The notes beneath the pieces were generated by a model, which saw only the letters and a program-made list of their open reading frames with translations, made no database searches and was not told the DNA's origin. From positions 1 to 64,000 of the IMG/VR virus record IMGVR_UViG_3300028831_000395: a DNA stretch of 64,000 bases. One strand, 5' to 3'. Numbering within the stretch: position 1 is the first letter of the stretch; the number at the start of each line of letters is the position of its first letter. This document shows, in pieces, positions 1,799 through 35,124 of the stretch. The position numbers were made by a program, and so were the translations under genes. This DNA comes from a virus.

Positions 1799-1823
1799 GG
1801 GGTTGCGCCGCACAGTGTAGCGC
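1799..1823 (-). promoter_or_regulatory. Conserved phage promoter/leader motif, copy 1
   Basis: Minus strand reads GCGCTACACTGTGCGGCGCAACCCC, about 20 nt upstream of ATG 1779. TACACT fits a TANNNT -10. Confidence 0.6.
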
Positions 1824-1904
1824 GCGGCGTGCGCTCTGTGCGAAGTTTCCCCCGCGACGACACGCGCCCCCTCGACGCGCGCGCCGGGTTCCCCTGCCGT
1901 CCGG

Positions 1905-2042
1905 TCAGCCGCCGCCCGGGATCACGGCCTTGACGACCTCGACGACGAGCGACCCCGTCGCGCCGACGATCTGCACGCCGAACACGAACGCCGCGGCGGC
2001 GACGCGCGAGACGGCCTCCTCGAACCCCGCGACGAACTTCAT
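1905..2042 (-). CDS. Small hydrophobic protein (45 aa)
   Basis: MKFVAGFEEAVSRVAAAAFVFGVQIVGATGSLVVEVVKAVIPGGG. ATGA overlap with the 2039-2503 gene. Confidence 0.4.
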   Translation of the reverse strand: MKFVAGFEEAVSRVAAAAFVFGVQIVGATGSLVVEVVKAVIPGGG

Positions 2043-2503
2043 CGCGCACCCGTCGGCGTCGGCTTGTGCAGCAGCTTGCCGACGGCGCCGGCTACGGCGT
2101 CCTGGATCTTGTCGCGCGGCGGCGCGCTGAGCGGCACAGCGACCTTGACGACGGGCACGGGCGGCGCCTTGGCGGGCTTCGCTCCGGGGGGCGTGGCGAT
2201 CGGCGCGGGCGTCTCGAGCGGGACGGTGAGGACGACCTTCGGGTTCGCGGTCGGCGTGACGGCCGCCTTCGCGCCGAGCAGTCCGAGCAGCGCGACGACG
2301 CTCTGCACCGGTGTCTGCAGCTTCGCCGGCAGCTTGCCCGCGAGCCACGCGAGGAACGTCGCGAGACCCCCGAACGCGATCACGGGGTCCTCTCCGACGC
2401 GCCTCTTGAGGTTCGCGACGAGGTCGGGGAGCAGCGCGTCGGTGACCCTCTTCACGAACGGCTTCTGCAGCGTGCTCTTCAGCTTCTCGAGTGGGTTAGC
2501 CAT
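2039..2503 (-). CDS. Hypothetical protein, hydrophobic centre and Pro/Ala/Lys-rich C-terminus (154 aa)
   Basis: Start at MANPLEKLK (ATG 2503). Protein-like composition, unlike the overlapping frames. Confidence 0.5.
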   Translation of the reverse strand: MANPLEKLKSTLQKPFVKRVTDALLPDLVANLKRRVGEDPVIAFGGLATFLAWLAGKLPAKLQTPVQSVVALLGLLGAKAAVTPTANPKVVLTVPLETPAPIATPPGAKPAKAPPVPVVKVAVPLSAPPRDKIQDAVAGAVGKLLHKPTPTGAR

Positions 2504-2602
2504 GAGGTCGAGACTACCCCTAGGTGGGGGAGCCTCGTCAACGCGGGGCGCCTGTAGACCGAAAGACGGGGCGCTGGCCAGCGCTCGGCGCCCCGCCCGC
2601 AC

Positions 2603-3073
2603 CTAGCCGATCGTCCGCACGAACACCTTGCCGGCGCCGCGCGCCCCGATCCGCAGCCCGACGAGCGCCTTCAACCGCGCTGTGAGGTCGAACTCGCGCC
2701 CCGCGACGAACGGGCCGCGATCGATGACGCGCGCCGTCGCGCACCGCCGCGCGCAGAACCGCAGGCGCGTGCCGCACGGCTTCGTCTTGTGCGCCACGCC
2801 GACGGTGCCCGGCTCCAGGACGCCGCCGCAGCCGAGCGCGTTGCCGTACAAGCCAGGCCCGTACCACGACGCCCACGCCGGCCTGAACTCGTCGGCGTGG
2901 GCGTCCTCGAGCCCGACGGCCGGCGCGACCGCCAGCGCGGCCGCGGCCAGCAGCGCTCGTCGGCGTGGGTGATGGATCCTGCGTCGGCGGCGCGCCGGCG
3001 CGTCGCTTGTGGAGCCGGCTCGCTCGAGCACGTCGAGGATCGCCGCCGAGGTGCTGCGCTTCGTGATGATCAT
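2603..3073 (-). CDS. Secreted RlpA-like double-psi beta-barrel (DPBB) protein
   Basis: Tat-like leader RRRRRIHHPRRRALLAAAALAVAPA followed by an ASWYGPGLYGNALGCGG core typical of RlpA/3D-type DPBB domains. Confidence 0.65.
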   Translation of the reverse strand: MIITKRSTSAAILDVLERAGSTSDAPARRRRRIHHPRRRALLAAAALAVAPAVGLEDAHADEFRPAWASWYGPGLYGNALGCGGVLEPGTVGVAHKTKPCGTRLRFCARRCATARVIDRGPFVAGREFDLTARLKALVGLRIGARGAGKVFVRTIG

Positions 3074-3127
3074 GTCCGCTGCCCTCCGTTCGGCCGGGCT
3101 CCGAGGACCCGGCGTTTGTCCTCCCCC

Positions 3128-3648: not shown

Positions 3649-3650
3649 GC

Positions 3651-3875: not shown

Positions 3876-3885
3876 GCCGTGCGTG

Positions 3886-4395: not shown

Positions 4396-4413
4396 GGGCT
4401 CCGTAATCCCGCG

Positions 4414-5772: not shown

Positions 5773-5797
5773 GGGGTTGCGCCTCAGAGTGTAGCGC
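5773..5797 (-). promoter_or_regulatory. Conserved phage promoter/leader motif, copy 2
   Basis: Minus strand reads GCGCTACACTCTGAGGCGCAACCCC, 18 nt upstream of ATG 5755. Confidence 0.6.
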
Positions 5798-7734: not shown

Positions 7735-8108
7735 CCTTGCCCGCCGATCGTGCTGCGTAGCGACTGCGCGGCGAACTCGCGGAGCGTGAGACCGCCGCGC
7801 CTGGCGATCTCTGCCTCGCCGTCCGGGTAGCCGTCGGCCTCGAGCATCTCGGCCGTGCCGGGAACGGTCAGCACGTCGCCGACGAGCTCGTCGGGCTCGG
7901 CCGTCTCCATCGTGCACATCGTGCAGATCGGATAGAGCGCGATGCCGTGCTGTCGCGCGAACGCTGTGCTCCGCGGGTTGACGAGGATCGTCGCGCGGCA
8001 GATCGTGCAGCGCGTCTCGCGCGTGCCGGGATCGGCAGCCTTGCGGGTACGGCGCGTCGCGTGAACGCAGACCAGGAGATACGCGCTATGCGTCGGCTCC
8101 GTCGTCAT
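7731..8108 (-). CDS. Zinc-ribbon protein (125 aa)
   Basis: CTIC...CTMC four-Cys arrangement. ATGA-coupled. Confidence 0.55.
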   Translation of the reverse strand: MTTEPTHSAYLLVCVHATRRTRKAADPGTRETRCTICRATILVNPRSTAFARQHGIALYPICTMCTMETAEPDELVGDVLTVPGTAEMLEADGYPDGEAEIARRGGLTLREFAAQSLRSTIGGQG

Positions 8109-8392
8109 GCGGCAGCCTCGACGGGGTGCGTGCCAGCGCGGCGAGTGCGCGGCTGCAGGGTCTCGACGTCCGCTTCAGGGTCGAGGAAGTGCCACATCGC
8201 GAGCGCGGCGTCCCGCGGGCTGCCGGTGACGCCCTGCACGCGCTCAGGGCCACGCCAGGCGACCCAGAACCACTCCGGCTCCCAGCCGGGCGGCACACCG
8301 TCGGCGGCGGGCCAGTTGACGATGTCGATCCAGCCGCCGTAGTGCGTCGTGCCCCATGCGGCGCAGTAGTCGCGACGGCGACGCAGGCTCAC
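8105..8392 (-). CDS. Trp-rich hypothetical protein, paralogue A (95 aa)
   Basis: GTG 8392 in a GTGA overlap. RRRRDYCAAWGTTHYGGWIDIVNWPA..WEPEWFWVAWRGPERVQGVTGSPRDAALAMWH. Paralogue of 17981-18238. Confidence 0.6.
   Translation of the reverse strand: MSLRRRRDYCAAWGTTHYGGWIDIVNWPAADGVPPGWEPEWFWVAWRGPERVQGVTGSPRDAALAMWHFLDPEADVETLQPRTRRAGTHPVEAAA
8189..8284. repeat. 96-bp perfect direct repeat, copy A
   Basis: Base-for-base identical to 18044-18139 (checked by eye). Flanking paralogue sequence is clearly diverged. Confidence 0.9.
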
Positions 8393-9204
8393 GCGGCGAC
8401 CTCGGCGAATGGCACGAGCGGCCAGTCGGTGCGGACGCGGTCGGCGTCCTCGGGCTTGCCCTCCTTGCGGAAGTGCAGTGCGAGACCGACGGCCTGGAAG
8501 CGATACCAGTCGATCTGCGCGGTGTGCAGCGCCCGCGCGTCGTCGCGGATGCGCTCCCATTCGGCCTGAAGCGGGTTCTGCTCCCAATGGTCGCGGCGGA
8601 TCGCGCGGCCGTTGCGGGCGATGCGGAACGCGAGGCGCGCCGCGGCGATCGCGTCGAAGTCGGCGTCGTGCGCGCCGGAGAACTCGACGCGGTAGTGCTT
8701 GCACATCGGCTCGAGCTGACGCTTGCCCTTGCGGTAGCGGTGCAGGTGCTTGTCGATGACGAGCGGGTCGATGATCAGCAGCTCGCCGCGGTTCTGCAGC
8801 GGCTCGACGCCGAGGCGCCGGCACTCGCGGTCGAGGACGGTCAGGTCGTAGGGCGCGTTGAAGATCACGATCGGTGCGCCGGCGGGGCGCTGCGCGAGCG
8901 TGTCGACGATGCGCGGCACGACGTCGCCGGGCATCTCGCCTGCCTCGCGGACCTGCTCGCTCGTGATGCCGTGCACGGCCGTCGCGCCGGCGGGGATCTC
9001 GACGCCCGGGTCGACGAGCCATGACCTCGACGTCGTGGGGCGCTGCCCGCCGACCTCGACGGCGGCCGCGGCCACTATCCGCGCCTCCTCGGGGTCCGCG
9101 CTCGTCGTCTCGAGGTCGAAGGCGGCGAAGCGCCGACGGTGCCACGGCGTGCCGGTGAACGGCTGCGGCTCGGGCTGCACGAGGTCGCGGATGCTCGCGC
9201 TCAT
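8389..9204 (-). CDS. DnaQ-like 3'-5' exonuclease (DEDDh family)
   Basis: Exo I AFDLETTS, Exo II IVIFNAPYDLTVL, Exo III HDADFDAIAAARL. Confidence 0.85.
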   Translation of the reverse strand: MSASIRDLVQPEPQPFTGTPWHRRRFAAFDLETTSADPEEARIVAAAAVEVGGQRPTTSRSWLVDPGVEIPAGATAVHGITSEQVREAGEMPGDVVPRIVDTLAQRPAGAPIVIFNAPYDLTVLDRECRRLGVEPLQNRGELLIIDPLVIDKHLHRYRKGKRQLEPMCKHYRVEFSGAHDADFDAIAAARLAFRIARNGRAIRRDHWEQNPLQAEWERIRDDARALHTAQIDWYRFQAVGLALHFRKEGKPEDADRVRTDWPLVPFAEVAA

Positions 9205-10530: not shown

Positions 10531-10560
10531 GGGGTTGCCTTGCGCCTCAGAGTGTAGCGC
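10531..10560 (-). promoter_or_regulatory. Conserved phage promoter/leader motif, copy 3
   Basis: Minus strand reads GCGCTACACTCTGAGGCGCAAGGCAACCCC. Confidence 0.6.
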
Positions 10561-10595
10561 GGTGCGGGTGGTTGCGGGGGAAGATTTCTGAGCGC

Positions 10596-10639
10596 GCGTC
10601 GGCGGCGTCCCAACCCCGCAGCGAGGACGCCGCCGACGC
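10596..10639 (-). terminator. Hairpin terminator (15-bp perfect stem)
   Basis: GCGTCGGCGGCGTCC-14 nt-GGACGCCGCCGACGC, 5 nt after the stop of the 10644-11264 gene. Confidence 0.7.
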
Positions 10640-10643
10640 CCGC

Positions 10644-11264
10644 TCAGGTCGAGTGCTGTACGGCGTTCGGGTCGCCGGTCGGGTCGGTCTCGTAGAGCAC
10701 GGCGGTTCCGCCCGGCAGGTCGGCGCGCCAGAAGCCGTTCTGCAGCGGCTCGACGCGACGGGCGGTCGTCGCGCGTCCGCGGTAGTAGACGGTCACGTTG
10801 CCGACCGTCGCGGCGAGCCGCGAGGCGTCGGCGATCTCCAGCGCGGTGGCCTCGCGGGTGACGGGCAGCACCTCGACGCGCCCGTCGCGGTAGATCACGA
10901 CGAGCGCGATCTGCTCGTCGTCGTAGTCGTAGATCGCGATGTCGCACGCGCCGTGATGCCCGCGCGGCGTCGTCATCACGGCGCCGATGGCGCGATGGCC
11001 GTGCACGATCCGCTCGATGTCCTCGCGGATGCGATCCAGCGGCAGGTCGGTCGGCTCGCGGTCGGCGTACGCCGCGACGCTGCCGACGATGGACACCGAC
11101 CAGATGCCGTTACGCACGTCGAAGTGGGGGTGCGAGATGAGGGTGTGCTGCAGCTCGCGGGGGTCGTGGCCGAGCGCGCGGGCGATCGCGATCGCCGTCG
11201 CGGTGCCGCCGCGCTTCTCGATGTACGCCTTCGCGTCGGTGACGAGGTCGGCGGTGATGGTCAT
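10644..11264 (-). CDS. Monocistronic hypothetical protein with a possible N-terminal winged helix (206 aa)
   Basis: Has its own promoter motif (copy 4) and its own terminator. N-terminus is AKAYIEKRGGTATAIAIARALGHDPRELQHTL. Divergent from the plus-strand island. Confidence 0.6.
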   Translation of the reverse strand: MTITADLVTDAKAYIEKRGGTATAIAIARALGHDPRELQHTLISHPHFDVRNGIWSVSIVGSVAAYADREPTDLPLDRIREDIERIVHGHRAIGAVMTTPRGHHGACDIAIYDYDDEQIALVVIYRDGRVEVLPVTREATALEIADASRLAATVGNVTVYYRGRATTARRVEPLQNGFWRADLPGGTAVLYETDPTGDPNAVQHST

Positions 11265-11286: not shown

Positions 11287-11311
11287 GGGGTTGCACTACA
11301 GAGTGTAGCGC
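11287..11311 (-). promoter_or_regulatory. Conserved phage promoter/leader motif, copy 4 (palindromic variant)
   Basis: Minus strand reads GCGCTACACTCTGTAGTGCAACCCC and contains CTACA-CTC-TGTAG. Confidence 0.6.
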
Positions 11312-11396: not shown

Positions 11397-11426
11397 GCGC
11401 TACACTCTGTAGCACAGAGCAACCCC
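11397..11426 (+). promoter_or_regulatory. Conserved phage promoter/leader motif, copy 5 (plus strand, palindromic variant)
   Basis: GCGCTACACTCTGTAGCACAGAGCAACCCC. TTGATC lies 17 nt upstream of TACACT. GGAGG then ATG 11443. Confidence 0.65.
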
Positions 11427-11442: not shown

Positions 11443-11769
11443 ATGGCCCGCATCCAGACCCGCACCAACGAGCGTCACGAGAACATCGCCAAGGCCGCCA
11501 ACCAGGCCGCCGAGGCGGCGCTCTGCCACTACGCGCACTTCAACGGCGTCCACTTCACCGACGAGGACTTCGACGCGCAGCAGGCGACGATGCGCAACGC
11601 GATCATGGAGCAGCTGCACCGCATCGAGCACGCGAAGGTGCTCGCCACGCACGCCGCGCTCAACGAGGCGCTGCAGCGCGCCGTCGCCGTCGAGGAGCTC
11701 AGCGACGAGCTCGCCGCGGTCGCCCCGCGCGAGCCGCGCATGATCCCCGCCGTCACCACGCGCTGGTAG
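11443..11769 (+). CDS. Hypothetical helical protein (108 aa)
   Basis: GGAGGA lies 6 nt before the ATG. First gene of the plus-strand island. Confidence 0.6.
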   Translation: MARIQTRTNERHENIAKAANQAAEAALCHYAHFNGVHFTDEDFDAQQATMRNAIMEQLHRIEHAKVLATHAALNEALQRAVAVEELSDELAAVAPREPRMIPAVTTRW

Positions 11770-11776
11770 CCCCCCG

Positions 11777-12145
11777 ATGCTCCGCCATCGCCCGCGCATC
11801 GCCGCCGCCAGCGACGCCGTCGACACCGTCCTGCTCGACATCGTTCTGCCCGCGCTGGACCGCCTCGTCGAGCGCGTCGAGCGTCGCGCTATGCCGCCGC
11901 TCGCCCGATACCTGCGTCGCCGCGCGGAGTACGCCGCCGACGTCGAGACCGTCAGCGTGGACTTCCGTCGCCTCGACCACGTGCTCACGCACGCCGAGGC
12001 CGACACCGTCAGCGGCGCGCTCGCGCTGTACGCCGCGCAGCTGCGGTTCGCGGCCGACGCGCTCGAGGTGCTGCCCGTCCCGTCGACCGATCGGCCGGAG
12101 CGCGCCGACTACGCCCGCATCGTCGCGATCAAGGCCCTCCCATGA
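11777..12145 (+). CDS. Hypothetical protein (122 aa)
   Basis: Protein-like helical sequence, same operon. Confidence 0.5.
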   Translation: MLRHRPRIAAASDAVDTVLLDIVLPALDRLVERVERRAMPPLARYLRRRAEYAADVETVSVDFRRLDHVLTHAEADTVSGALALYAAQLRFAADALEVLPVPSTDRPERADYARIVAIKALP

Positions 12146-12387
12146 CCCGTCGCGTTCTCCGCCAGATCCGTGCGGGCCTCGGGCGGGCCGTCAGCGCGAA
12201 CGAGCACCTCGCCGGGGCGTCCGCGTCGACATCGACGCAGGCGCGCCTCGACGCGCTCTGTCGCCGCGACCCCAAGATCGTCCGCGAGACGGTCGAGGAG
12301 CTCGCTCGGATGCGCGCCGGCTGGCAGCACACCAGCTACGACACCGCCCTAGGCCAGCTCCTCGACGCGATGGAGAAGAACCGATGA
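12142..12387 (+). CDS. Hypothetical protein (81 aa)
   Basis: ATGA-coupled. Confidence 0.5.
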   Translation: MTRRVLRQIRAGLGRAVSANEHLAGASASTSTQARLDALCRRDPKIVRETVEELARMRAGWQHTSYDTALGQLLDAMEKNR

Positions 12388-12845
12388 CCGTCACCGACCA
12401 CGCCGCCGGCCTCGCGACGGAGAAGACCCGGCAGCTGTTCGACGCGCTGCACGAGTCGTGCAGGGCGGCGCGTCTCGACCCTCCGTTCATCGACGAGTTC
12501 GCGGACTACGTCGTCGCGCTCGCGTGCGGTCGGGGCGAGGCCTGGCTGAAGGTCTTCATCGGCGAGCGCGAGGCGGAGGCGCAGCGGCGGTGCCTGGCGA
12601 TCTACGAGACGCTCGACCGCTTCGCGCGCCTGAACCGCGTCGACTACCAGGACGTCGCGTTTGCGGCGGAGGACGCTCGCTTCGCGTGCTCGTGCGATCC
12701 GCGCGTCCTGGTGCTCGTGACGAGCGCGGGCGGCGCGATCGTCGCGGATCTCGCCGGCGGTCACGTCGAGGAGTTCTCGCCGCGCCCACGCGGCCACCGG
12801 ACGCCGCTGCGCTGGCTCGCCGACCTCTGGCTCGGCCGGGCATGA
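12384..12845 (+). CDS. Hypothetical protein (153 aa)
   Basis: ATGA-coupled. Balanced composition. Confidence 0.55.
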   Translation: MTVTDHAAGLATEKTRQLFDALHESCRAARLDPPFIDEFADYVVALACGRGEAWLKVFIGEREAEAQRRCLAIYETLDRFARLNRVDYQDVAFAAEDARFACSCDPRVLVLVTSAGGAIVADLAGGHVEEFSPRPRGHRTPLRWLADLWLGRA

Positions 12846-12943
12846 CCCTCACGCCGCTGCAGCTCCGCGCCGCGGTGCTCGCCCGCCTCGACGCGCTCGA
12901 GGACGCCGGCATAACGGACCGGGCGCCAGACAGCCCGGGGTAG
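12842..12943 (+). CDS. Possible small protein (33 aa)
   Basis: ATGA-coupled ATG at 12842: MTLTPLQLRAAVLARLDALEDAGITDRAPDSPG. Confidence 0.3.
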   Translation: MTLTPLQLRAAVLARLDALEDAGITDRAPDSPG

Positions 12944-13020: not shown

Positions 13021-13428
13021 TCAGCGCGCCGGGATCTTCGGCCCGGTGTACCCGCAGGACGGGCATGGCTGCTGCCCGCTGCGCGGCGACCCGTAGATCC
13101 GGCACGTCCGGCACGCCGCGCCCGGCGATCCGGGCGACGACAGCTCGGCCGGCGCCTCAACGGCGATCTCCGCGGCCGCAGGCGCTGAACCCTGAGGCGC
13201 CGGGCGAGGTGTGGGGCGAGCCGCTCGAGGCTTCGCGGGCGGCCTCGGCGAGACGCGCACCACCGCCGCCGGGGTCTGCGCCGGCCCCGTCACCGCGCCG
13301 CCGTACGTCGCGCGGACGGCCGCGCGAACGAGCCACGAGAGATCGCGGTCGTCGCGACCGGCCGCCGCCTGCAGCAGCTGCTCTTCAAGGTCGGTGAAGC
13401 GGATGGAGCGCTGAGCCACCCCGCGAGT
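13021..13428 (-). CDS. Ribbon-helix-helix (CopG/Arc-like) regulator with C-terminal zinc ribbon
   Basis: GTG start. N-terminus SIRFTDLEEQLLQAAAGRDDRDLSWLVRAAV, Pro-rich linker, then CRTC...CPSC. Divergent from the 13714 operon. Confidence 0.6.
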   Translation of the reverse strand, partial: TRGVAQRSIRFTDLEEQLLQAAAGRDDRDLSWLVRAAVRATYGGAVTGPAQTPAAVVRVSPRPPAKPRAARPTPRPAPQGSAPAAAEIAVEAPAELSSPGSPGAACRTCRIYGSPRSGQQPCPSCGYTGPKIPAR

Positions 13429-13592
13429 GTAACCCACCGGGTGACACCGCAACCCGCGGCGTGGCGGCGCCGCTGACCTGACGCTCTCCACCGAGAGAAC
13501 CGGAGCCGGGGCAGCCCGCATCCCGGTCCACGCCCCGTTCGCCTCGCTCGACGCCGCCCACCCCAACCCTAACTCACGCGCCGAGCGGCATC

Positions 13593-13654
13593 CCGCTACA
13601 CAGGCGGCTATGACGCCTCCGACGCTCACCGTAACCTCTGTAGCCCAATCAACC
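13593..13654 (+). promoter_or_regulatory. Two degenerate plus-strand copies of the promoter motif
   Basis: CCGCTACACAGGCGGC (13593-13608) and CCGTAACCTCTGTAGCCCAATCAACC (13629-13654), upstream of ATG 13714. Confidence 0.35.
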
Positions 13655-13713
13655 ACACGCGGCGCCGCGTAAACCAACCACGACGCCGCAGGGACACAGG
13701 AGGCATATCTCCC

Positions 13714-14109
13714 ATGCGACACACACACTCTCACAACCCCCCACCCCCCAACCTCAACGCCGACGAACACCCCGCCCTCGCGCCGCCGGGTCGCACGAGC
13801 GGGCACCGCAGGCTAGGCTCAGGGCTTCGCCCGCCTAGCCGCCCGCCGCGGACCCTCGGGTTGATCGGGGCTTTGGCGGGCGTGGTGGTTCTGGTGGGCG
13901 TGCTGCTTGTGGTGGGGGGTGTGGTGTCGGTGCCGGGTTGGTATTCGCCGCCGGTGGAGTACAGCGATGTGGTGCGGTCGCATCCGTGGGTGGCGTCGGG
14001 GCTGGTGTTCGGTGCGGCGCTGTCGGTGTTCGTGCTGTTCGTGTCGGCGGTCGTTTCGTTGCCTGAGCCGCGTGGGCGTGGGCGGCGTGAGGGGGGTGGG
14101 TCGGCGTGA
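13714..14109 (+). CDS. Membrane protein, 2 TM (131 aa)
   Basis: AGGAGG lies 10 nt before the ATG. TMs are LIGALAGVVVLVGVLLVVGGVV and ASGLVFGAALSVFVLFVSAVV. Confidence 0.6.
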   Translation: MRHTHSHNPPPPNLNADEHPALAPPGRTSGHRRLGSGLRPPSRPPRTLGLIGALAGVVVLVGVLLVVGGVVSVPGWYSPPVEYSDVVRSHPWVASGLVFGAALSVFVLFVSAVVSLPEPRGRGRREGGGSA

Positions 14110-14468
14110 TGCGGCTTATCCGGTTGGCTCGGCTGATCGTGTCGCTGCTGATGGTCCTCGTCGGCCTGGTTGGCGGCGGGCGCTCTGCGGCGCCTTCGGC
14201 TCCGGCGTACCCGACGCCGCCGGCGGCCGTTCCGAGCTCGCCGGCCGCGCCGGCGCGGGTTGTGCCGCACGGTCCGACGCCGCACTGCACGACGTCGGGC
14301 GGACCGAGGGCCTCCGACGGTGCGAATCGGTGGGTCGGGGTGTGCTTGGTCTACGGGCAGAGCACGCCGCTTCCCGGCGACTACGCGACGCAGCGCGAGG
14401 CGCGGGCGACGGTGTTCGCGTTCCAGCAGGCGTGGCGCGACGCCGTCGCGAGCGGAGCGCCGCTGTGA
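14106..14468 (+). CDS. Secreted / signal-anchored protein (about 120 aa)
   Basis: N-terminal MMRLIRLARLIVSLLMVLVGLVGG then a Pro-rich linker. Coupled start GTGATG. Confidence 0.55.
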   Translation: MMRLIRLARLIVSLLMVLVGLVGGGRSAAPSAPAYPTPPAAVPSSPAAPARVVPHGPTPHCTTSGGPRASDGANRWVGVCLVYGQSTPLPGDYATQREARATVFAFQQAWRDAVASGAPL

Positions 14469-14740
14469 GCCGGCTGGGCACGGCGATCGTCGTCCTGGCG
14501 GTCGCGTGCGTGGTCCTGGCGGTCGTCGGCGTCGCGACCGACGGGGCGTCGATCGGGACGCTCCTGGTCATCGCCACCGTGGGACTCGCGATCGTCGGCC
14601 TCACCTCCGGTGCCCGACGCGGCGGCGAGTGCGGGCACGTGCCGCCTCCGTCGTTCGGTAGCGACCGGCACGACTGGCGGTGCACTCGCGAGCGTCGCCA
14701 CTACGGCACCCACCGCTATCACCGCCGGGGTGAGGCGTGA
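14465..14740 (+). CDS. Membrane protein, 2 TM (91 aa)
   Basis: GTG in a GTGA overlap. TMs are TAIVVLAVACVVLAVVGVA and TLLVIATVGLAIVGL. Confidence 0.5.
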   Translation: MSRLGTAIVVLAVACVVLAVVGVATDGASIGTLLVIATVGLAIVGLTSGARRGGECGHVPPPSFGSDRHDWRCTRERRHYGTHRYHRRGEA

Positions 14741-15222
14741 GCCTCCGAAGGCGCATCGTGACGCTGCTGTTTGCCGCCTGGTGCGTGTGGGGGTACCTGA
14801 CGCTCGTGCCGGCCGTGCCGCGCGCGGACTGCGACAAGCAGTCCTCGCCGGTCGCGATCAAGGTCAGCGTGTCGCGGTACCCCGAGAACTGGCGGCACAT
14901 CGTGGACGCCCGCCACGGCCGCAACACCGTCGGCGGCACGAAGGTGATCGACGACGGCCTGCGGTGGCCGGTCGTGCTGGTCAAGAACGACCAGGGCGAG
15001 GACCAGCGTCGGCAGGCCGCGTTCCGGCTGGCCGGTCTCGCCGGGAAGACGAAGGCCGGCAAGGCACGCGACGAGTACCCCCCCGCTGAGGGTCGATCAA
15101 CGAACGCCGCGGACATCCGGTTCGTGAACGCGCGGCAGAACAGCGCACAGGGCGCGAGCATGGGTGGCCAGCTCCGCAGGTGGTGTAACGGCCAGACGTA
15201 CAAGCTGGTGGCCGCACCGTGA
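14737..15222 (+). CDS. Exported NucA/NucB-type deoxyribonuclease-like protein
   Basis: Signal/anchor IVTLLFAAWCVWGYLTLVPAV. Family-like string RYPENWRHIVDA...RRQAAF...ARDEYPPAEG...IRFVNARQNSAQGASMGGQL. Confidence 0.65.
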   Translation: MSLRRRIVTLLFAAWCVWGYLTLVPAVPRADCDKQSSPVAIKVSVSRYPENWRHIVDARHGRNTVGGTKVIDDGLRWPVVLVKNDQGEDQRRQAAFRLAGLAGKTKAGKARDEYPPAEGRSTNAADIRFVNARQNSAQGASMGGQLRRWCNGQTYKLVAAP

Positions 15223-15749
15223 AGTGGTTTGGTGGCCGGGCCCGTCCCGAGGAGGGTCCGGCCGCCCCGCATCACGTGCATCTCACGAAGCCGCCGTGGG
15301 CGACGTCGTCGCGCATGTCGGGCGGGGTCCTGAAGGGCTCAACGCCGCAGGAGCGCGCGCAGAAGGGAATCGATCAGCGCGACCGCGAGCGCGTGCAGGC
15401 GCTCAGGAAGCGCGCGAGCACCGCGGGGTACGCGGCGTATTGGGCGGCTCGCAACGCCGCCCGGGCGCTCGACACCGCCAACCGCGCGCAGCTGCGCGCC
15501 GACACCGCAGGGGCGTCGGAGGAGCAGCAGATCAAGCTCGAGGCCGCCGTCGATTCGACGCGTCGAGCGCACGGCCGCTGCGACGACGCGTCGAGGCGCG
15601 CGCGGTCCGCGGCGAAGCGCGCGACGGCGCTCACCGGCGGGCGCCTGCTCGGCGCGGTACACGAGGCCGAGGCGCACAAGGAGGTCGCCGCCCGGGCGCT
15701 GCACGAGACGAAGGCCGCCGCGGCGGCCGCGGTCAAGCACGCGAGGTAG
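15219..15749 (+). CDS. Hypothetical all-helical protein (176 aa)
   Basis: GTGA-coupled. Ala/Arg/Glu-rich predicted long helices. Confidence 0.45.
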   Translation: MKWFGGRARPEEGPAAPHHVHLTKPPWATSSRMSGGVLKGSTPQERAQKGIDQRDRERVQALRKRASTAGYAAYWAARNAARALDTANRAQLRADTAGASEEQQIKLEAAVDSTRRAHGRCDDASRRARSAAKRATALTGGRLLGAVHEAEAHKEVAARALHETKAAAAAAVKHAR

Positions 15750-15751
15750 CC

Positions 15752-17375: not shown

Positions 17376-17984
17376 CTACGAGCGCGCTTCGTCCCACGTC
17401 AGGATCACGCGGGTGCGGTAGATGCCGCGCGGCGACGCCACCGGGTCGATCGCCATCGTCAGCACCCAATCGCGGTCCTTGTCATCCACGAGCCAGCCGC
17501 CGGTGTAGGCGCGGTGCTGGTAGGTGAGCACGCGGTCAAGCTCGGGGTCCTGGTGCCGCGGCCCGGTCAGCGCGTCGCCGACGGCCTTGGCGATCACCGG
17601 CCGGCGGTTCTCGCTCTCCTGCTCGTCGGGGCGCGGGTAGGACACGACGAGGTGCACCCACAGCGGGCGGAGCGCCGGGACGGGGCGCGTGAGCACCGCG
17701 CCGGGCCCGTAGCTGAGCGCGTCCATCGCCCGCATGAGCTCGCCCTGCCACGACCCCTTCTCGGCGTGGAAGCCCTTCCAGCTCGACCGGATCGCGTTCA
17801 GGTTCACCGACGACGGCGCGCCCGGCAGCACGAACGCGACGCGGCGCCGGCGCATCGCCGGCGTGTCCGCGATCAGCCCGAGGTCCCGTGAGGCGTGCCA
17901 CCACAGCGCGCCCAGCGCGCCGTCCGTCGCCGCGATGCGACGCTCAAGCTCCGCGAGGTCGTCGCCGACAAGGGCGAGCGTCAC
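17376..17984 (-). CDS. RusA-like Holliday-junction resolvase candidate (202 aa)
   Basis: GTG in a GTGA overlap. FVLPGAPSSVN ... ENRRPVIAKAVGDALTG ... GGWLVDDKDRDWV resembles the RusA DxDN..K..DAL..DD pattern. Confidence 0.45.
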   Translation of the reverse strand: MTLALVGDDLAELERRIAATDGALGALWWHASRDLGLIADTPAMRRRRVAFVLPGAPSSVNLNAIRSSWKGFHAEKGSWQGELMRAMDALSYGPGAVLTRPVPALRPLWVHLVVSYPRPDEQESENRRPVIAKAVGDALTGPRHQDPELDRVLTYQHRAYTGGWLVDDKDRDWVLTMAIDPVASPRGIYRTRVILTWDEARS

Positions 17985-18238: not shown

Positions 18239-18240
18239 TC

Positions 18241-23141: not shown

Positions 23142-23166
23142 GTCGGACCTCCGGTCAGGATTGCGA

Positions 23167-23191
23167 GGGGTTGCGCAACACAGTGTAGCGC
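23167..23191 (-). promoter_or_regulatory. Conserved phage promoter/leader motif, copy 6
   Basis: Minus strand reads GCGCTACACTGTGTTGCGCAACCCC. Confidence 0.6.
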
Positions 23192-23213
23192 AACCCGGCG
23201 GATGCGATCCGTC

Positions 23214-25400: not shown

Positions 25401-26375
25401 TCAGCCGACGATCGCGGCGAGCTTCTCGCCGACGCCGTCGCCGCCCTCGGCGATGACGCGCTGCACCTCCTCGTGACGCTCGGCCAGGTCCGGCCAGCGA
25501 CGCTCGGCCCACGCGACGAGCTGGTCGGCGCGCTCGACGAGGTCCTGCCCGCGGTAGTGCGAGGCGAGCTCGAGGACGCGCGCGGGATCGTCGTAGAGGC
25601 CGTCGTGGGCGCGCTCGACGATCTCGGTCAGCAGGCGCGGCAGGTCGTCCTCGGCGGTCTCGAGCGCCTCGCCGGTGCCGCGCAGCGACCGGATGATCTG
25701 TCGTGCGGCGGCGACGGCGCTGTCCTCGGCGTTCTGGTCGACGGCCTTCGTCTGGGCGGGCGCGAGGACGCGCGCGTCGGGCTTGCGCATGTCGGCGGCG
25801 AAGACGATGCCGTTGAGGACGAAGACGTCCTGGCCGGTCGAGTCGTCCTTGCGCACGCGGATGACGCCGAAGCGCTGCCGGCTCCGGACGGAGAACTTGA
25901 CGAGCATCGCGGCCTTCTCGTCGCGCAGCGCGCGCATGATCGTGCGCATGGGGCGGTCGAAGCCGGGGTCGGGCTGCACGTAGAAGGTGCCCGTCAGGCG
26001 GTCGGTCGGCACGAGGCGGTAGTCGATGAACTCGAGCAGGTCGACGGTGTCGAGATGCGTCGCGGCGTGCGCGTAGTCGATCTCCGACTGCGGGACGACG
26101 CGGAAGTCGTCGCCGACGCGGACGCCCTTCACGGCCTCCGCGATGACCTCGGGCACCTCGACGACCTCGAGGTCCTCGACGGTCGTGGCCTCGGGGTCCT
26201 TCGCCTCGTAGAGCTTGCGGACGCGCTCGGGGTGCGCGTACTGCTGCACGCGCGACGTGCCGTCGGGAAAGGCGGTGTCGAACCTGACGTCGGTCGAGCC
26301 GGTCGCGGCGGCGATGCCGACGGGGATCTTGAGCAGCTCGCCGAGTACGAGCGTGGTCCTGGTTACTGCGCGCAT
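25401..26375 (-). CDS. ku: Ku-like DNA end-binding protein
   Basis: LGELLKIPVGIAAATGSTDVRF, VKGVRVGDDFRVV, LEFIDYRLVPTDRLTGTFYVQPD, MRALRDEKAAMLVKFSVRSRQRFGVIR follow the bacterial Ku core pattern. Confidence 0.7.
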   Translation of the reverse strand: MRAVTRTTLVLGELLKIPVGIAAATGSTDVRFDTAFPDGTSRVQQYAHPERVRKLYEAKDPEATTVEDLEVVEVPEVIAEAVKGVRVGDDFRVVPQSEIDYAHAATHLDTVDLLEFIDYRLVPTDRLTGTFYVQPDPGFDRPMRTIMRALRDEKAAMLVKFSVRSRQRFGVIRVRKDDSTGQDVFVLNGIVFAADMRKPDARVLAPAQTKAVDQNAEDSAVAAARQIIRSLRGTGEALETAEDDLPRLLTEIVERAHDGLYDDPARVLELASHYRGQDLVERADQLVAWAERRWPDLAERHEEVQRVIAEGGDGVGEKLAAIVG

Positions 26376-26397: not shown

Positions 26398-26422
26398 GGG
26401 GTTGCGCCGCAGAGTGTAGCGG
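26398..26422 (-). promoter_or_regulatory. Conserved phage promoter/leader motif, copy 7
   Basis: Minus strand reads CCGCTACACTCTGCGGCGCAACCCC, upstream of ATG 26375. Confidence 0.6.
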
Positions 26423-26497
26423 ACGGGGTCGTCGCAGGCTACCCCGTCGGATGGTGCGTGTGGGTGCACGCAACGGGCGGCGGTAGCGTCTGCGTCC

Positions 26498-26908
26498 ATG
26501 GTCGTCTCGGTCATCGCGGCGGTGTCGAGCAGCATCGGGATACTGATCGGGGCGGCGGTCTCGGTCGGCGGGATGGTCGGCGGCGCGATCGCGTTCGTGC
26601 TCCGGTACAAGCGGACCGATGAGGGCGAGCACGTCAAGCAGCAGAGCCAGGTCCTGGCCGACGCGATGGGCGTCTACGAGAAGCTGCAGCGAACGCTCAC
26701 GCAGACCGAGGAGCAGCTCTCCGCCGCGAAGATCGAGCGTGACGCCGCCAAGGCCGAGCGAGACGCGGCGAAGGCCGAGCGAGACGAGGCGACCGCGGAG
26801 CGCGAGCGGATGCGTGTGCAAGTCGAGTCGCTGACGGCCGAGGTGTCGAGCCTGACCGAGAAGGTGGACACTTTGCAAACGACGCTTGAGCAGGTGAGGG
26901 ACCGATGA
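26498..26908 (+). CDS. Membrane-anchored coiled-coil protein (136 aa)
   Basis: N-terminal TM then heptad-like repeats AKIERDAAKAERDAAKAERDEATAERE. Confidence 0.65.
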   Translation: MVVSVIAAVSSSIGILIGAAVSVGGMVGGAIAFVLRYKRTDEGEHVKQQSQVLADAMGVYEKLQRTLTQTEEQLSAAKIERDAAKAERDAAKAERDEATAERERMRVQVESLTAEVSSLTEKVDTLQTTLEQVRDR

Positions 26909-27699
26909 GCACGAACGGCAGCGACATCCGCGATGCGGTCAAGATGCTCGGCGCGTCGATCGCCAGGGCTCACGCCTACATAAAGATCCTCGGCATCGGC
27001 GTCCTGTTCTGCATGGTCATCGTCGGCGCCGGCGTCGCGATCAACGGCTGCAACGCGCTGAGGGCGAACGACAGGGCGAACGCCGCGCAGGAGCAGAGCG
27101 CGAACGCCCAGGGCCAGACCGCCGACACGATCGCGTGCCTGCGCACGACGCGCTCGCAGACCCGATCTCGCGATCGATGCCTGCGTCAGATCGAAACCCA
27201 GGTGACCGCGCCTGGCAAGCCCGGCGCGTCTGGCCGCCGAGGCGCGACGGGCGCCACGGGTCCCATCGGTCTCAAGGGCGACGAGGGCGAGAAGGGCGAT
27301 ACCGGCGCGACCGGGCCGCGCGGGCCGCAGGGGCTACCGGGAACGCAGGGCGTGCAGGGCGCGAAGGGCGACAAGGGGGACCCCGGGGACGCGGGGACCA
27401 GCCCCCCGCCAGCTCCCGCGAGGCCACCGACGCGACCACCGGATCAGCGACCCGACCGCCCGGGAGACCGCCCCCCGCCCGACGAGCCGCCTCGGCGACC
27501 GCCGCCCGGCATGCAGGGACCTCGAGGCGAGAAGGGCGACCCGGGGGAGAAGGGCGAGAAGGGCGATACCGGGCAGCCTGGTGCGCCGGGCACGGTCGTG
27601 CTGTCGATCGAGACGGCGTGCCCCAACGGGCTCGGCGGCGGCCTGACGCCGGGCGTCGCGACGGACCCCGACGGCGACGGGAACTTCACCTGCCCGTAG
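26905..27699 (+). CDS. Membrane-anchored collagen-like (G-X-Y) repeat protein (264 aa)
   Basis: TM ILGIGVLFCMVIVGAGVAI. About 20 G-X-Y triplets, a Pro-rich linker, about 9 more triplets, then a C-terminal globular tail. ATGA-coupled. Confidence 0.8.
   Translation: MSTNGSDIRDAVKMLGASIARAHAYIKILGIGVLFCMVIVGAGVAINGCNALRANDRANAAQEQSANAQGQTADTIACLRTTRSQTRSRDRCLRQIETQVTAPGKPGASGRRGATGATGPIGLKGDEGEKGDTGATGPRGPQGLPGTQGVQGAKGDKGDPGDAGTSPPPAPARPPTRPPDQRPDRPGDRPPPDEPPRRPPPGMQGPRGEKGDPGEKGEKGDTGQPGAPGTVVLSIETACPNGLGGGLTPGVATDPDGDGNFTCP
27214..27591 (+). repeat. Collagen G-X-Y triplet-repeat coding region (two blocks, 27214-27396 and 27508-27591)
   Basis: GKPGASGRRGATGATGPIGLKGDEGEKGDTGATGPRGPQGLPGTQGVQGAKGDKGDPGDAG and GMQGPRGEKGDPGEKGEKGDTGQPGAPG. 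Confidence 0.8.
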
Positions 27700-28275: not shown

Positions 28276-28301
28276 GGGGTTCGTGCCGCAAAGGTTAGCG
28301 C
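28276..28301 (-). promoter_or_regulatory. Conserved promoter/leader motif, copy 8 (degenerate)
   Basis: Minus strand reads GCGCTAACCTTTGCGGCACGAACCCC. Overlaps the stop codon of the RuvC-like gene. Confidence 0.45.
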
Positions 28302-31358: not shown

Positions 31359-31371
31359 GTGCTTTCCGTGG

Positions 31372-32511: not shown

Positions 32512-33905
32512 GCCCGCGACCTCGGTCGGCGCCGCTCGGTCTCGGCGGCCGCGAGCGCCGCCGCGCGCTCGAACATCTCGACGACGTCGGCGTCGTCGAG
32601 GCCGCGCGTCACGTCGGCGTCGGGGCTGTAGTCGCGGAACGCCGTCGACACGCGCCGCTTGTAGAGCTTGCGTGGGTCGCGGCCGGCGAGCATCGCGGCG
32701 CTGACCTGCGCCTTTGTGGGCCGCTCGACGCGCTCGGTCTCGACGTACCCGAAGAACCGGTCGCGCTTGGCGTCGCGGACGCGGACCGGGCCCTCTCGGT
32801 CGGCCCACGTCCGCAGGCTCGCCTCGGTCTGCTTGACCACGCGCTTGGCTCGGATGAGCACCCCCGCGACCGTCTCGGCCTCCGCAGGCGTGTTGATCGC
32901 GCCGCCCTCGCGCGCGTCCTTGTCGACGGGGCAGTCCTGCGCGCCGGGGCAGTAGCTGCAGTGCGCGCCCGGCGACGGCTCGCCCCACTGCGCCGGCGTC
33001 GAGAGCACGCGCCGACGGATCCGGCCGCGGCGCGTGACGACGGCGGCCTCGTAGCAGCGGTCGAAGCGCTCGGCCGTCGCCGAGAAGTACCCCAGGAGGT
33101 CGGGCAGCTTGTGGCGCCAGATCGTCGCCTCGCGAGGCCTCGAGCGTCGGATGTAGAACTCGCGCAGCGTCACCGACTGCACGCCGCGGAACTGCGGCGA
33201 GAGGAAGATCAGCAGCGCGTAGAACTGCTGCTGGAAGTAGCCCTCCTGGCTGAGCGCGTCGTCGCCGTCCTCCTCGTCGTCGTCCACCTCATCCTCGGAC
33301 CCCTTCTTCGTCGGCAGCTTCCACGTGTCCTTCCAGTCGGGCACGGTCGCGTGCGCCCCAGAGGGGTCGATGAGCAGGAGGTCGAGCTGCCCGGTCAGGA
33401 CCCGCTCGACGAACCCGCCCGCACCGTCGGGGTAGCGGATCGTCGCGGCGAGGCGCTCCTCGATGCCGTACAGCTCGGCGATCGTGATCAGGTTGTCCTT
33501 CGCCCACTTGTGCAGCGTTCGGCGCGCGAGCGCGTCCTCGTGCGCTGGCAGCGCGAACGTCTCGCCGACGGGGACCTCCGCCTGCCGCAGCTCGAGATCC
33601 CAGAAGTCGATGACGGTCTCCGGCGCGATGAACTCCTGGCGCTTCTCGCGCATGTGCCGGATCGATCGGCCGAGCGTGGAGTGGATGAGCCGCCCTGCGG
33701 CCTGGCGGTGCGTCGTGTAGCCGCTGGTATGCAGCGTCTGCGTCCCGGGCCGCGTGATCGACATCCGCAGGTCGAAGCCGGCCTGCAGCTGGCAGTCGGC
33801 GAACGTCGCGAGCATCGACTGGCGCAGAACGGGGAAGTGCGCCAGGGCGATCGGGTAGGGGACGTGCGGTGTCGCCGGGGGCGCGACGAGGGCGGGGGTT
33901 GCCAC
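32508..33905 (-). CDS. PD-(D/E)XK (RecB/Cas4-like) exonuclease
   Basis: GQLDLLLID..DWKDTWK (D..D.K), QQQFYALL (QxxxY), C-terminal Cys cluster CSYCPGAQDC. Adjacent to the RecT-like gene. Confidence 0.65.
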   Translation of the reverse strand: MATPALVAPPATPHVPYPIALAHFPVLRQSMLATFADCQLQAGFDLRMSITRPGTQTLHTSGYTTHRQAAGRLIHSTLGRSIRHMREKRQEFIAPETVIDFWDLELRQAEVPVGETFALPAHEDALARRTLHKWAKDNLITIAELYGIEERLAATIRYPDGAGGFVERVLTGQLDLLLIDPSGAHATVPDWKDTWKLPTKKGSEDEVDDDEEDGDDALSQEGYFQQQFYALLIFLSPQFRGVQSVTLREFYIRRSRPREATIWRHKLPDLLGYFSATAERFDRCYEAAVVTRRGRIRRRVLSTPAQWGEPSPGAHCSYCPGAQDCPVDKDAREGGAINTPAEAETVAGVLIRAKRVVKQTEASLRTWADREGPVRVRDAKRDRFFGYVETERVERPTKAQVSAAMLAGRDPRKLYKRRVSTAFRDYSPDADVTRGLDDADVVEMFERAAALAAAETERRRPRSRA

Positions 33906-33914
33906 GCGTGCAGG

Positions 33915-35087
33915 CTACGTCGTGGCGGGCGCGTGCTCGCGCTCGTCGGCCTCGAGCGCGGCGAGCTCGGTGTCGTACTCGCGTCGCTCGGCGTCGTCGA
34001 GGCCGTCGGGGTCGAACTCCCGCAGCTGCTTGAGGCGCTTGGCGTTGGCGACGGGGTCGCGGCGGCGCGCCTGCTCGAGCTGCACGTCGTGCTCGATCTC
34101 CGCGGCGATCCGGGCGCGCGCGGCGGCGTGGATCTCCGCCGACGCCTGCGTGCCGTCCTCGGCGACCTTCGCGCTCGCCAGGTGCGCGCTCAGCTTCGCC
34201 GGCGGCCAGAGCATCACGTCGAGCGCCTGCGCCTGGCGGTAGGCGTCCAGGATGCGGGTGTCGATGTCATCCACGGGCCCCTCCTCGAAGATCGCCGGGG
34301 CGACGGGCTCGCTGAGATCCGGTAGCGGGTCGGGCCGGCGGTTCACCTCGTCGGCGCCGACCACGTCGTTGAGGCTCGTTGCGACGCGCAGCGCGTTGCA
34401 CATCGCCGCCGCGATCATGCACCCGTCGGGGTAGCGCGCGCGGACGTCGTCGGGGTCCAGCGCGGCGCGCTCCTGCTTGCTACCGAGGTAGTGCTCGACG
34501 TCGAGGACGCGGATCGTCGGCGGCTTGCCGCGCATCTCCGCGACGCACCACGCGCCGACGAGGTCGCCGCGGCTGCCGGGCATCCCGGACTCGTGCGTGA
34601 TCCCGGCGCGCTCGGCGAGCGTCGCGGCGGTCGCGTCGGGCTTGCCCTTGCGGAACAGGTCGTCCTTGAAGATCGCCCCCTCGTCGTGGCCGAGAAAATC
34701 GGTCTGGCGCTCGGCGTGGCGCAGCAGCGCCTTGAGCTTCGCGACGACCGAGTACCCGAGGCCCGCGCCGTCGCGCGATCCCTCACGCTTGAGGAACACG
34801 TCGCCGCGCAGCGGGTCGGCCTGCAGCCGGCGCCCCTCGAGCAGCAGCCGCAGCACATCCGCGGCACCGGCGTCGTCGGGGACGCACTCGGAGACGATGA
34901 GGTCGACCATCTGCTGCCCGCCGAAGTGGGCGATGAGGTCGGCGGGGATCGGCGGGTCTTGGCGGCCTTGGCTCGGGCGTCGCGGCGTGCTGCGCGACGG
35001 CGTCGCCGCGCGCTGCGTGCGGGGCTTGCGCGCCGGCGCCTTCGGCTTTGACGCGCGCTGTGCTCGAGGCTTCTCGGCCATGCTCAT
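33915..35087 (-). CDS. RecT-like single-strand annealing protein
   Basis: Core LGYSVVAKLKALLRHAERQ..GHDEGAIFKDD..ITHESG..GDLVGAWCVAEMRGK resembles the RecT family. Paired with the exonuclease. Confidence 0.55.
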   Translation of the reverse strand: MSMAEKPRAQRASKPKAPARKPRTQRAATPSRSTPRRPSQGRQDPPIPADLIAHFGGQQMVDLIVSECVPDDAGAADVLRLLLEGRRLQADPLRGDVFLKREGSRDGAGLGYSVVAKLKALLRHAERQTDFLGHDEGAIFKDDLFRKGKPDATAATLAERAGITHESGMPGSRGDLVGAWCVAEMRGKPPTIRVLDVEHYLGSKQERAALDPDDVRARYPDGCMIAAAMCNALRVATSLNDVVGADEVNRRPDPLPDLSEPVAPAIFEEGPVDDIDTRILDAYRQAQALDVMLWPPAKLSAHLASAKVAEDGTQASAEIHAAARARIAAEIEHDVQLEQARRRDPVANAKRLKQLREFDPDGLDDAERREYDTELAALEADEREHAPATT

Positions 35088-35098
35088 CCTCCGTGGTT

Positions 35099-35124
35099 GG
35101 GGTTGCCGCCTCAGACAGTAGCGC
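35099..35124 (-). promoter_or_regulatory. Conserved promoter/leader motif, copy 9
   Basis: Minus strand reads GCGCTACTGTCTGAGGCGGCAACCCC, directly upstream of GGAGGA and ATG 35087. Confidence 0.5.

Follow-up and report, generated by a model that had tools for sequence, protein, structure and literature searches.

Repeated intergenic motifs that contain a promoter are already described in actinophages, as in Gordonia phage Vardy of cluster DJ, where an intergenic 50-bp motif containing a -10 element is repeated (PMC9671010). The present analysis concerns a motif in 64,000 nucleotides (nt) of phage DNA, positions 1 to 64,000 of the IMG/VR record IMGVR_UViG_3300028831_000395 (hereafter the window), in which nine copies of a cassette unite a -10 hexamer, usually TACACT, with a downstream block CAACCCC ahead of early and middle genes. 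We lean toward reading the copies as a promoter for host RNA polymerase (RNAP) fused to a conserved 5' leader tag, i.e., as a combination of two modules. Like the cassette, the Vardy motif is present in several copies in the non-structural half of a lytic-looking actinophage, carries a sigma70-type -10, and reaches toward the start of the next gene; however, it has another sequence and forms one block up to the start codon, whereas conservation of the cassette ends after about 9 transcribed nt and its block stands at varying distances from the -10 and from the Shine-Dalgarno (SD) sequence.

In Mycobacterium tuberculosis the TANNNT hexamer as a rule has no -35; among its extended forms CGN is the commonest, with 45% of the cases, and TGN-TANNNT provides maximal activity (PMC3898074). 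The transcription start site (TSS) maps of M. tuberculosis and M. smegmatis indicate purine starts, usually with a pyrimidine at -1, and the CGN/TGN extensions (PMC3898074; PMC6448022). The cassette has in common with these extended -10 or -10-only promoters of actinobacterial SigA/HrdB the TANNNT with free interior, G at -14, CGN or TGN, and the absence of a -35 (PMC3898074, PMC6448022). The predicted pyrimidine-purine start 7–9 nt after the hexamer and the candidate leaderless variants of the phages would also agree with these promoters. Host promoters are not reported with a fixed discriminator or with common first 8 transcript nt, whereas the phage cassettes conserve both across many promoters and several phages. 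The study of Zhu et al. (J Bacteriol, 2017; cited in PMC6448022) reportedly deals with the -10-only and extended -10 promoters of actinobacterial SigA/HrdB.

Short start-associated motifs, SAS and ESAS, are known from cluster K mycobacteriophages, where a role in translation is suspected and ESAS are 17-bp inverted repeats (PMC3203893). Similarly to the CAACCCC block they are short, asymmetric, fixed in orientation, placed before many genes, and retained before orthologous genes. SAS is tied to the translation start, its distance to the start and overlap with the SD being a cluster K feature, whereas the CAACCCC block lies 12–27 nt from the start codon, excludes the SD, and is always coupled to a -10; in contrast to ESAS, it has no consistent inverted repeat. 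The stoperators of cluster A phages (L5 gp71 sites) are asymmetric sites of about 10–13 bp in one orientation, located in short intergenic regions of both arms at about 25–35 per genome and mostly away from promoters. They resemble the block in asymmetry, in one orientation to transcription, and in multiple intergenic copies; however, they are scattered in temperate phages with a known repressor, whereas the block is found only just after a -10 in a window where no recognisable repressor and no integrase were found. Promoters of T7-type RNAP, about 23–25 bp long, span the start with rigid spacing, do not show the degeneracy of TANNNT, and depend on a polymerase gene of the phage. The cassette is likewise a long conserved motif that spans the start and is repeated before transcription units, but its spacing is not rigid, its hexamer interior varies, its block shifts by 0–7 nt, and no RNAP domain was found among the window proteins. 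Palindromic repressor operators, such as those of the phiC31 CIR type, possess dyad symmetry across copies, whereas the cassette block is asymmetric and the dyad is not kept.

Occurrence and Conservation of the Cassette

The motif is real, statistically solid, and evolutionarily conserved. All nine copies of the original prediction were found in their places by string search, including six exact occurrences of GCGCTACACT and one of CCGCTACACT, and the pattern GCTANNNTNTG matched these nine sites only on both strands (128 kb), with 0.99 ± 0.96 matches expected and at least nine in 0 of 100 shuffles. The string GCAACCCC occurred 12 times versus 1.5 expected (at least 12 in 0 of 100 shuffles); outside the cassettes it was seen three times versus about 1.5 expected, which is approximately chance, and one more copy at 33895–33902 stands in a cassette-like context. 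Each of the nine copies precedes, in the same orientation, an SD and a start codon, which follow the motif end after 5–14 nt and 16–25 nt, respectively, instead of the 14–22 nt previously given for the start codon. On both strands 8/8 TACACT hexamers lie between genes and point toward the gene that follows, intergenic DNA being about 11% of the window. The intergenic position ascribed to every copy does not strictly apply to copy 8 (28297), where the preceding gene ends with the TAA of TAACCT as its stop codon. As had been proposed, the late region is free of the motif, with zero copies in 35–64 kb by weight-matrix scan; the view that a copy heads every early/middle operon was overstated, as several units seem to be served by a leaderless -10 alone.

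The search in related phages, recommended together with the original prediction, revealed 18 further copies in six metagenomic relatives, namely, R1 (IMGVR_UViG_3300018432_000004, in pieces L006, L024, L033, and L034), L005, L002, L007, L035, and L036, which were recovered by motif scan and protein-anchored walks and whose shared proteins are about 35–75% identical to those of the window. Altogether 27 cassettes in seven phage genomes are available. The genes that follow them are often orthologous, namely, those of Ku and the HARE-HTH protein, the HTH_17 operon, a 70-aa open reading frame (ORF), and a 206-aa ORF together with its divergent partner. Between orthologous intergenic regions divergence is seen before the -10 and in the leader past the block, the cassette itself being intact, which speaks for purifying selection and not for recent copying. 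The conservation noted for about 15 nt past the -10 was confirmed on 13 fixed-spacing sites from five genomes, where the stretch from -17 to +8 stands out by its high information content against flat surroundings.

A parallel cassette, YGC-TATCKT-N6-11-GTACCCGA-N4-10-SD-ATG preceded by (TATAGAT), is present in the more distant phage L008 (IMGVR_UViG_3300005337_000022) at 6849, 16106, and 19746, with one leaderless variant at 19057. To judge from these sites, many phages of this group may combine a promoter with a floating leader block. Arthrobacter phage vB_ArtM-ArV1 (L032), a distant portal homolog, was considered as a member of the motif group and rejected, as it carries a different repeated intergenic motif of its own, AAACAGGCAC, about 10 nt, TAGATT or TAGGCT, and TGTAAGC ... 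CCACAACGAAAG before start codons (for example, at 41.0, 51.2, 54.7, and 67.8 kb), in which conservation again runs past the -10.

With 49 kb of the window as the query, megablast returned zero matches among 50,697 phage records, i.e., the phage is without a close relative among them, and a 30-nt motif query against the same records gave chance partial matches only. The strict motif found one true relative among metagenome contigs, already included in the set, the other matches being a coding-sequence coincidence or AT-richer iterons. At the guanine-cytosine (GC) content of the window, 72%, scans for promoters and terminators of E. coli type gave no usable information, and nothing of use was found in literature on the motif string and on phiC31 early promoters.

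The Probable Promoter Module

The upstream half of the cassette (module 1) is composed of (C/T)G-N-TANNNT, six further bases, and a pyrimidine-purine step. The reading of TACACT as the -10 of promoter-like sites is supported. All the sites are located upstream of a gene and share its orientation, and TANNNT is present in 27/27 of them, with 11 different interiors (TACACT, TACAGT, TAGGCT, TAACCT, TACTGT, TAAGGT, TACATT, TACCTT, TACCGT, TAGCAT, and TACGGT). G occupies -14 in 26 of the 27 sites, and the triplet before the hexamer reads CGC in the window, several relatives having TGC, TGA, or TGT instead. The six discriminator bases have G fixed at the third and sixth positions, and in 26/27 sites they are followed by a pyrimidine-purine step, at bases 7 and 8 from the hexamer. 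A shared -35 is indeed absent, as the best TTGACA match averages 3.0 of 6 positions versus 2.4 in background and the region shows no cross-phage conservation. The invariant T-12, A-11, and T-7, the tolerant interior, and the G-14 extension are the sequence-level properties of the extended -10 class.

According to this signature module 1 is very likely a promoter for the host primary-sigma holoenzyme of SigA/HrdB type. With such a signature, which belongs to the extended -10 promoters of actinobacterial SigA, the sites can do without a sigma of the phage, and a phage-specific sigma appears both unnecessary and unsupported, though about 9 kb of the source record lies outside the window. The original suggestion of a phage-specific sigma or RNAP-appropriation factor is thus not sustained: the upstream half is a standard SigA signature, and the Pfam and PHROGs scans of the window proteins and of the R1 right arm, whose largest unassigned protein is a portal, gave no sigma or RNAP gene.

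In several candidate leaderless units the start codon follows TANNNT after 7–9 nt (13433–13417, 26482–26500, 2518–2501, and 33917–33895 in the window; L036:8152 and L008:19057 elsewhere). Since the start codons are so placed and the pyrimidine-purine step is present in 26/27 sites, the TSS is predicted at the 8th base after the hexamer, which in the common form of the cassette would be the G of GCAACCCC.

The Downstream Block

The second half of the cassette (module 2), (C/G)AACCC(C), is located 8–15 nt downstream of the -10, whose interior is less conserved than the block. It falls within the first 15 or so nt of the predicted transcript, 0–7 nt after the predicted start and always in sense orientation; from the block to the SD, which is not included in it, there are 0–14 nt, and from the block end to the start codon 12–27 nt. 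The 13 fixed-spacing sites, which come from five phages, all contain CGCAACCC unchanged but differ from one another in the hexamer interior and at most positions of the discriminator. The distance between the -10 and the block is 8 nt in 14/27 sites and 9, 10, 11, 12, 13, or 15 nt in the others. The long forms keep the start context (C-R-C-A-A/G), after which CAACCCC appears again, as in GCGCAAGGCAACCCC, CACAGAGCAACCCC, and GCGCAAGCAACCCC. The spacing also differs between orthologous promoters: that of the 206-aa ORF is short in the window and L035 and long in L036, and that of its divergent partner carries an insert, 5 nt long in the window and L035 but 7 nt long in L036.

Because its distance to the -10 is flexible, the block can be considered as an element separate from polymerase recognition, and it is likely a distinct module and not a sigma determinant. 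A rigid polymerase-recognition element would not float in such a manner, while an RNA 5'-end element or a DNA site under the initiating polymerase would. The original proposals of a site for a regulator or of a 5' leader element that is conserved survive for the downstream block only, as a separate and flexibly spaced module, and not for the motif as a whole.

Several possible associations of the block were rejected. CAACC cannot serve as a -35 of extracytoplasmic function (ECF) type, as its -10 and start would land inside or beyond the start codon. The inverted GGGGTTG occurs about 55 nt upstream of copy 3 (in a terminator loop, 10611–10617) and about 100 nt upstream of copy 9 (35224–35230); as an antisense partner upstream of copies 3, 6, and 9 it is compatible with chance and is not kept in relatives. 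The -10 palindrome CTACA..TGTAG was discarded as a general operator, being present only in copies 4 and 5, L035:4150, L035:2290, and L002:671 and absent from the L036 orthologs. The string GCGCAACCC (for example, 1799–1807 and other short-type copies) exactly matches a sense segment of 16S rRNA that is universally conserved and to which primer 1100R (GGGTTGCGCTCGTTG) is complementary; the match is post hoc, has a chance of a few percent across rRNAs and tRNAs on both strands, and was regarded as a coincidence and given no weight.

Interpretation of the Two Modules

According to the reading of a host promoter fused to a leader tag, host RNAP with the primary sigma would bind the -35-independent extended -10, (C/T)G-N-TANNNT, and transcription would start at the purine at the 8th base after the hexamer. 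The early/middle mRNAs from these promoters would then begin with 5'-(R)(N0-6)CAACCCC, followed by 0–14 nt, GGAGG, and AUG. The block would act after initiation on the 5' end of the transcript, via translation, stability, or recognition by a factor. That it acts as RNA and not as DNA is possible, short of probable, and is favoured by its transcript-only placement, its fixed orientation, the spacing tolerance on both sides, and its identity across lineages with 35–55% protein identity, unlike repressor-operator pairs, which usually diverge faster. If true, it would constitute a phage-wide leader tag.

In a more specific and quite unlikely version, CAACCCC, in its usual context GCGCAACCC, would be a 5'-terminal RNA tag on all early/middle phage transcripts, read by a host or phage RNA-binding factor that favours phage mRNAs, either via preferential ribosome loading or via nuclease protection during host shut-off. 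The identity of GCGCAACCC with the 16S segment would permit mimicry of a ribosomal-protein or assembly-factor binding site, and the L008 block GTACCCGA would be a second tag of the same type.

Several observations weigh against the fused promoter and leader tag. The common 8-nt spacing in 14/27 sites is a spacing preference, and the conserved discriminator TG..G could equally mean direct RNAP contacts or a protein site from -5 to +9. The leaders possess no conserved secondary structure and no consistent SD sequestration, and no Rfam family was matched in the window at the gathering score; because there is neither a conserved fold nor an Rfam match, an RNA role would need to be sequence-specific. 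The anatomy of the sequence, the positions and orientation of the copies, and their conservation across phages are observed, whereas the polymerase with its sigma, the start site, and the role in RNA are deduced from them, and the source record of 73,425 bp extends about 9 kb beyond the window, where a phage sigma or polymerase could lie. Finally, the strict motif gave one chance-like match, in a Myxococcota metagenome-assembled genome, among 185,579 species genomes and no host or prophage copies were seen there, so that host-promoter mimicry and prophage copies are unsupported.

Among the alternatives, the block may be a DNA operator, where a phage regulator on the asymmetric (G)CGCAACCCC would block initiation or early elongation as a roadblock or in a "stoperator"-like manner, the units being switched off together late in infection or in a carrier state. 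We consider this unlikely, though it accounts for a number of facts: the block is asymmetric, fixed in orientation, and always within the RNAP footprint (+1 to +15), a steric block tolerates variable spacing, and a different block in the distant L008 is expected if site and regulator co-evolve. Candidate DNA binders are encoded as well, namely, the HTH_17 protein (28134–27805), the HARE-HTH protein (23141–22266), the ribbon-helix-helix-like protein (13419–13021), and the 206-aa ORF at the divergent pair; besides, copy 6 has an inverted second half-site GGGTTGCGC, and the -10 of copies 4 and 5 is embedded in a palindrome. However, these palindromic features are lost in orthologous sites (L036:9957, L036:8098), isolated copies away from promoters are absent, unlike the cluster A stoperators, and the block is never found upstream of the -10, though a steric operator could be. 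The above-mentioned identity of the block between lineages and the lack of an integrase or recognisable repressor among the window proteins also argue against an operator. If it were true, the block would represent a promoter-proximal roadblock system in a phage without a recognisable repressor.

It is also improbable that RNAP itself reads the whole span from -17 to +9, the discriminator and initial transcribed sequence (TG..G C|GCAACCCC) tuning the stability of the open complex, start choice, and promoter escape, with the block having no function once transcribed. The conserved span does correspond to the DNA touched by RNAP in the open complex, the third and sixth discriminator positions are always G, the start is always pyrimidine-purine, and one spacing is common to 14/27 sites; in addition, the RNA-DNA hybrid at escape from sigma70-type promoters is about as long as the block. 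Nevertheless, the spacing varies by up to 7 nt and is different between orthologous promoters, the leaderless candidates use a -10 without a block, and the L008 block stands 6–11 nt from its -10.

It is very doubtful that the downstream conservation is functionless, i.e., that the cassette multiplied through duplication or recombination and that gene conversion keeps its copies similar. The copies inside one genome are indeed near-identical, and the gene content between cassettes differs among the relatives, as is typical of phage mosaicism; but orthologous flanks and the -10 interior have diverged with CGCAACCC untouched, and insertions between the start and the block leave the block intact. 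The least probable explanation, to which we give hardly any credence, is a promoter of a phage-encoded T7-like single-subunit RNAP or a dedicated sigma, the first suggestion of the original prediction, because the T7-like extent from -17 to about +8, the missing -35, and the 9 kb of genome outside the window are set against the sigma70-family recognition signature, in which T, A, and T are invariant and the interior is free, a CGN/TGN extension that fits sigma region 3 (PMC3898074), internal spacing that is not rigid, and the absence of RNAP or sigma domains in the called proteins of the window or R1 right arm.

Most likely, ordinary host-type promoters in a new phage lineage explain most of the motif, and the floating CAACCCC is a residual puzzle of modest interest. 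The motif provides a ready map of early/middle transcription units for an undescribed lineage of high-GC myovirus-like actinophages, and the cassette would be a compact, probably strong, -35-independent promoter for high-GC actinobacteria. The floating block offers a clean and mutable test case for what short oriented start-proximal motifs such as SAS do.

Individual Copies and Their Surroundings

Copy 1 (1799–1823, minus strand), GCGC TACACT GTGCGG C|GCAACCCC with predicted TSS at G1806, heads a minus-strand ORF (1779–1444) as its first gene. The product of this ORF is a homolog of the actinobacterial integration host factor (mIHF 6tob, E-value 2e-14; sIHF SCO1480) with an S13-like H2TH fold. 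The adjoining 81-aa ORF (1127–1372, minus strand) looks by eye like its shorter paralog and had no match in Pfam and PHROGs. Copy 2 (5773–5797, minus strand) is of short type, has predicted TSS G5780, and heads the ORF 5755–5384.

Copy 3 (10531–10560, minus strand) is of long type, GCGCAAGGCAACCCC, with predicted TSS G10543, and heads the ORF 10509–10297; this long variant is retained before the orthologous gene in relatives (L033:8520, L035:5336, and L036:10771). Directly before it, at 10590–10645 on the minus strand, a 24-bp terminator-like hairpin (-53.4 kcal/mol, z = -6.0, 0/200 shuffles fold equally well) ends the unit of the gene 11264–10644 and marks a unit boundary. GC-rich stems are also present just upstream of copy 2 (12-bp) and upstream of copy 9 (10-bp). 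A terminator before every copy was rejected, as significance was reached at copy 3 only and copies 6 and 8 directly follow the upstream gene; judging by this arrangement, copies 6 and 8 would be internal promoters.

Copies 4 and 5 stand back to back within a 178-bp divergent region. Copy 4 (11287–11311, minus strand) has its -10 within the palindrome CTACA-CTC-TGTAG, a predicted TSS at G11294, and heads the 206-aa ORF (11264–10644); its ortholog L035:4150 keeps CTGTAG, and the ortholog L036:9957 is without it. Copy 5 (11397–11426, plus strand), of long type CACAGAGCAACCCC with predicted TSS A11414, heads the block 11443–12943, and its orthologs L035:2290 and L036:8098 keep the long form with inserts of 5 and 7 nt.

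Copy 6 (23167–23191, minus strand; predicted TSS G23174) heads the HARE-HTH protein gene 23141–22266, has orthologous copies at L006:10656 and L005:5960, and contains (23163–23197) a perfect 9-nt inverted repeat, GGGTTGCGC and GCGCAACCC, on either side of the -10. PDB sequence searches with the HARE-HTH and 206-aa proteins gave no matches. Copy 7 (26398–26422, minus strand; predicted TSS G26405) heads the Ku gene 26375–25401 and has an orthologous copy at L006:5721 (TACAGT). The Ku homolog (25401–26375, minus strand) directly follows the cassette, as in some mycobacteriophages, and is 60% identical to the R1 Ku.

Copy 8 (28276–28301, minus strand), TAACCT ... CGAACCCC with predicted TSS A28284, heads a 40-aa membrane peptide (28253–28131) and then the HTH_17 gene 28134–27805; the orthologous copy is L006:3396 (TAGGCT). 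Copy 9 (35099–35124, minus strand), TACTGT ... GGCAACCCC with predicted TSS G35107, heads the RecT-like gene 35081–33915 and is the first promoter after the late/lysis block. A possible leaderless variant, TAGCCT GCACGC GTG GCAACCCC (33895–33917, minus strand), follows it, in which the GTG is the start of the PD-(D/E)XK gene 33905–32508 and the GCAACCCC block comes directly after the start codon.

The candidate leaderless promoters with a -10 alone include GG TAGTCT CGACCTC ATG (2501–2518, minus strand), heading the ORF 2503–2039; G-T-TACACT-CGCGGG-GTG (13417–13433, minus strand), heading the ribbon-helix-helix-like ORF 13419–13021; and GG TAGCGT CTGCGTCC ATG (26482–26500, plus strand), heading the ORF 26498–26908 and then a collagen-like ORF. 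The latter (26905–27699, plus strand) lies in a small plus-strand block within the minus-strand early region and encodes a collagen-like protein with an N-terminal membrane segment and two G-X-Y repeat runs (9-bp periodic DNA repeats at 27265–27600).

Of the two weak plus-strand variants listed originally, that at 13593 (TACACA) is not TANNNT and falls out, and that at 13632, TAACCT CTGTAG CCCAATCAACC, is a plausible weak and diverged copy (CCG TAACCT CTGTAG CCCAATCAACC, 13629–13654, plus strand), about 60 nt before the SD of the membrane/NucA/FtsK-like block that begins at 13714. This block belongs to a plasmid-like module (13021–17332), which consists of the apparently leaderless ribbon-helix-helix-like ORF (13419–13021, minus strand) and, on the diverging side, of small membrane ORFs whose codon usage is atypical, a nuclease of NucA/NucB-like type (14758–15222), and an FtsK/SpoIIIE-like translocase (15752–17332). 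The module resembles the Tra/Spd transfer genes of actinomycete plasmids, and a homologous FtsK-like gene is also present in the relative L036.

Genome Organization and Other Observations

The source phage is a novel myovirus-like actinobacterial phage of high GC content, of which the window covers about 64 of 73 kb, and nearly all genes are carried by the minus strand. From 64 kb down to 35 kb there are genes of the terminase, Mu-type portal, tail sheath, baseplate J, tape measure, and lysozyme; the portal is about 33–38% identical to Arthrobacter phage portals. From 35 kb down to 1 there follow a RecT-like gene, PD-(D/E)XK nuclease, O-like replication initiator, Ku, DUF5131, HerA-like ATPase, DnaQ-like exonuclease, HIT and UDG-like genes, and two mIHF/sIHF-like genes. 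Small plus-strand blocks are located at 11.4–17.3 kb and 26.5–27.7 kb, and no tRNAs were found in the window.

In R1 and L035 a GpA-type large terminase is located inside the region syntenic with the window early genes (L034:5375–7300; L035:10039–11946), and in R1 a second portal-like gene lies further on (L034:13162–15687), while the window instead possesses another terminase (PHROG 38) and the Mu-type portal. This arrangement points to the exchange of packaging modules between otherwise related phages.

The segments 8170–8398 and 18025–18250, about 9.9 kb apart and with 83–90% nucleotide identity, carry a paralogous pair of a small ORF (8105–8392 and 17981–18199), the L005 homolog of which is 71–77% identical.

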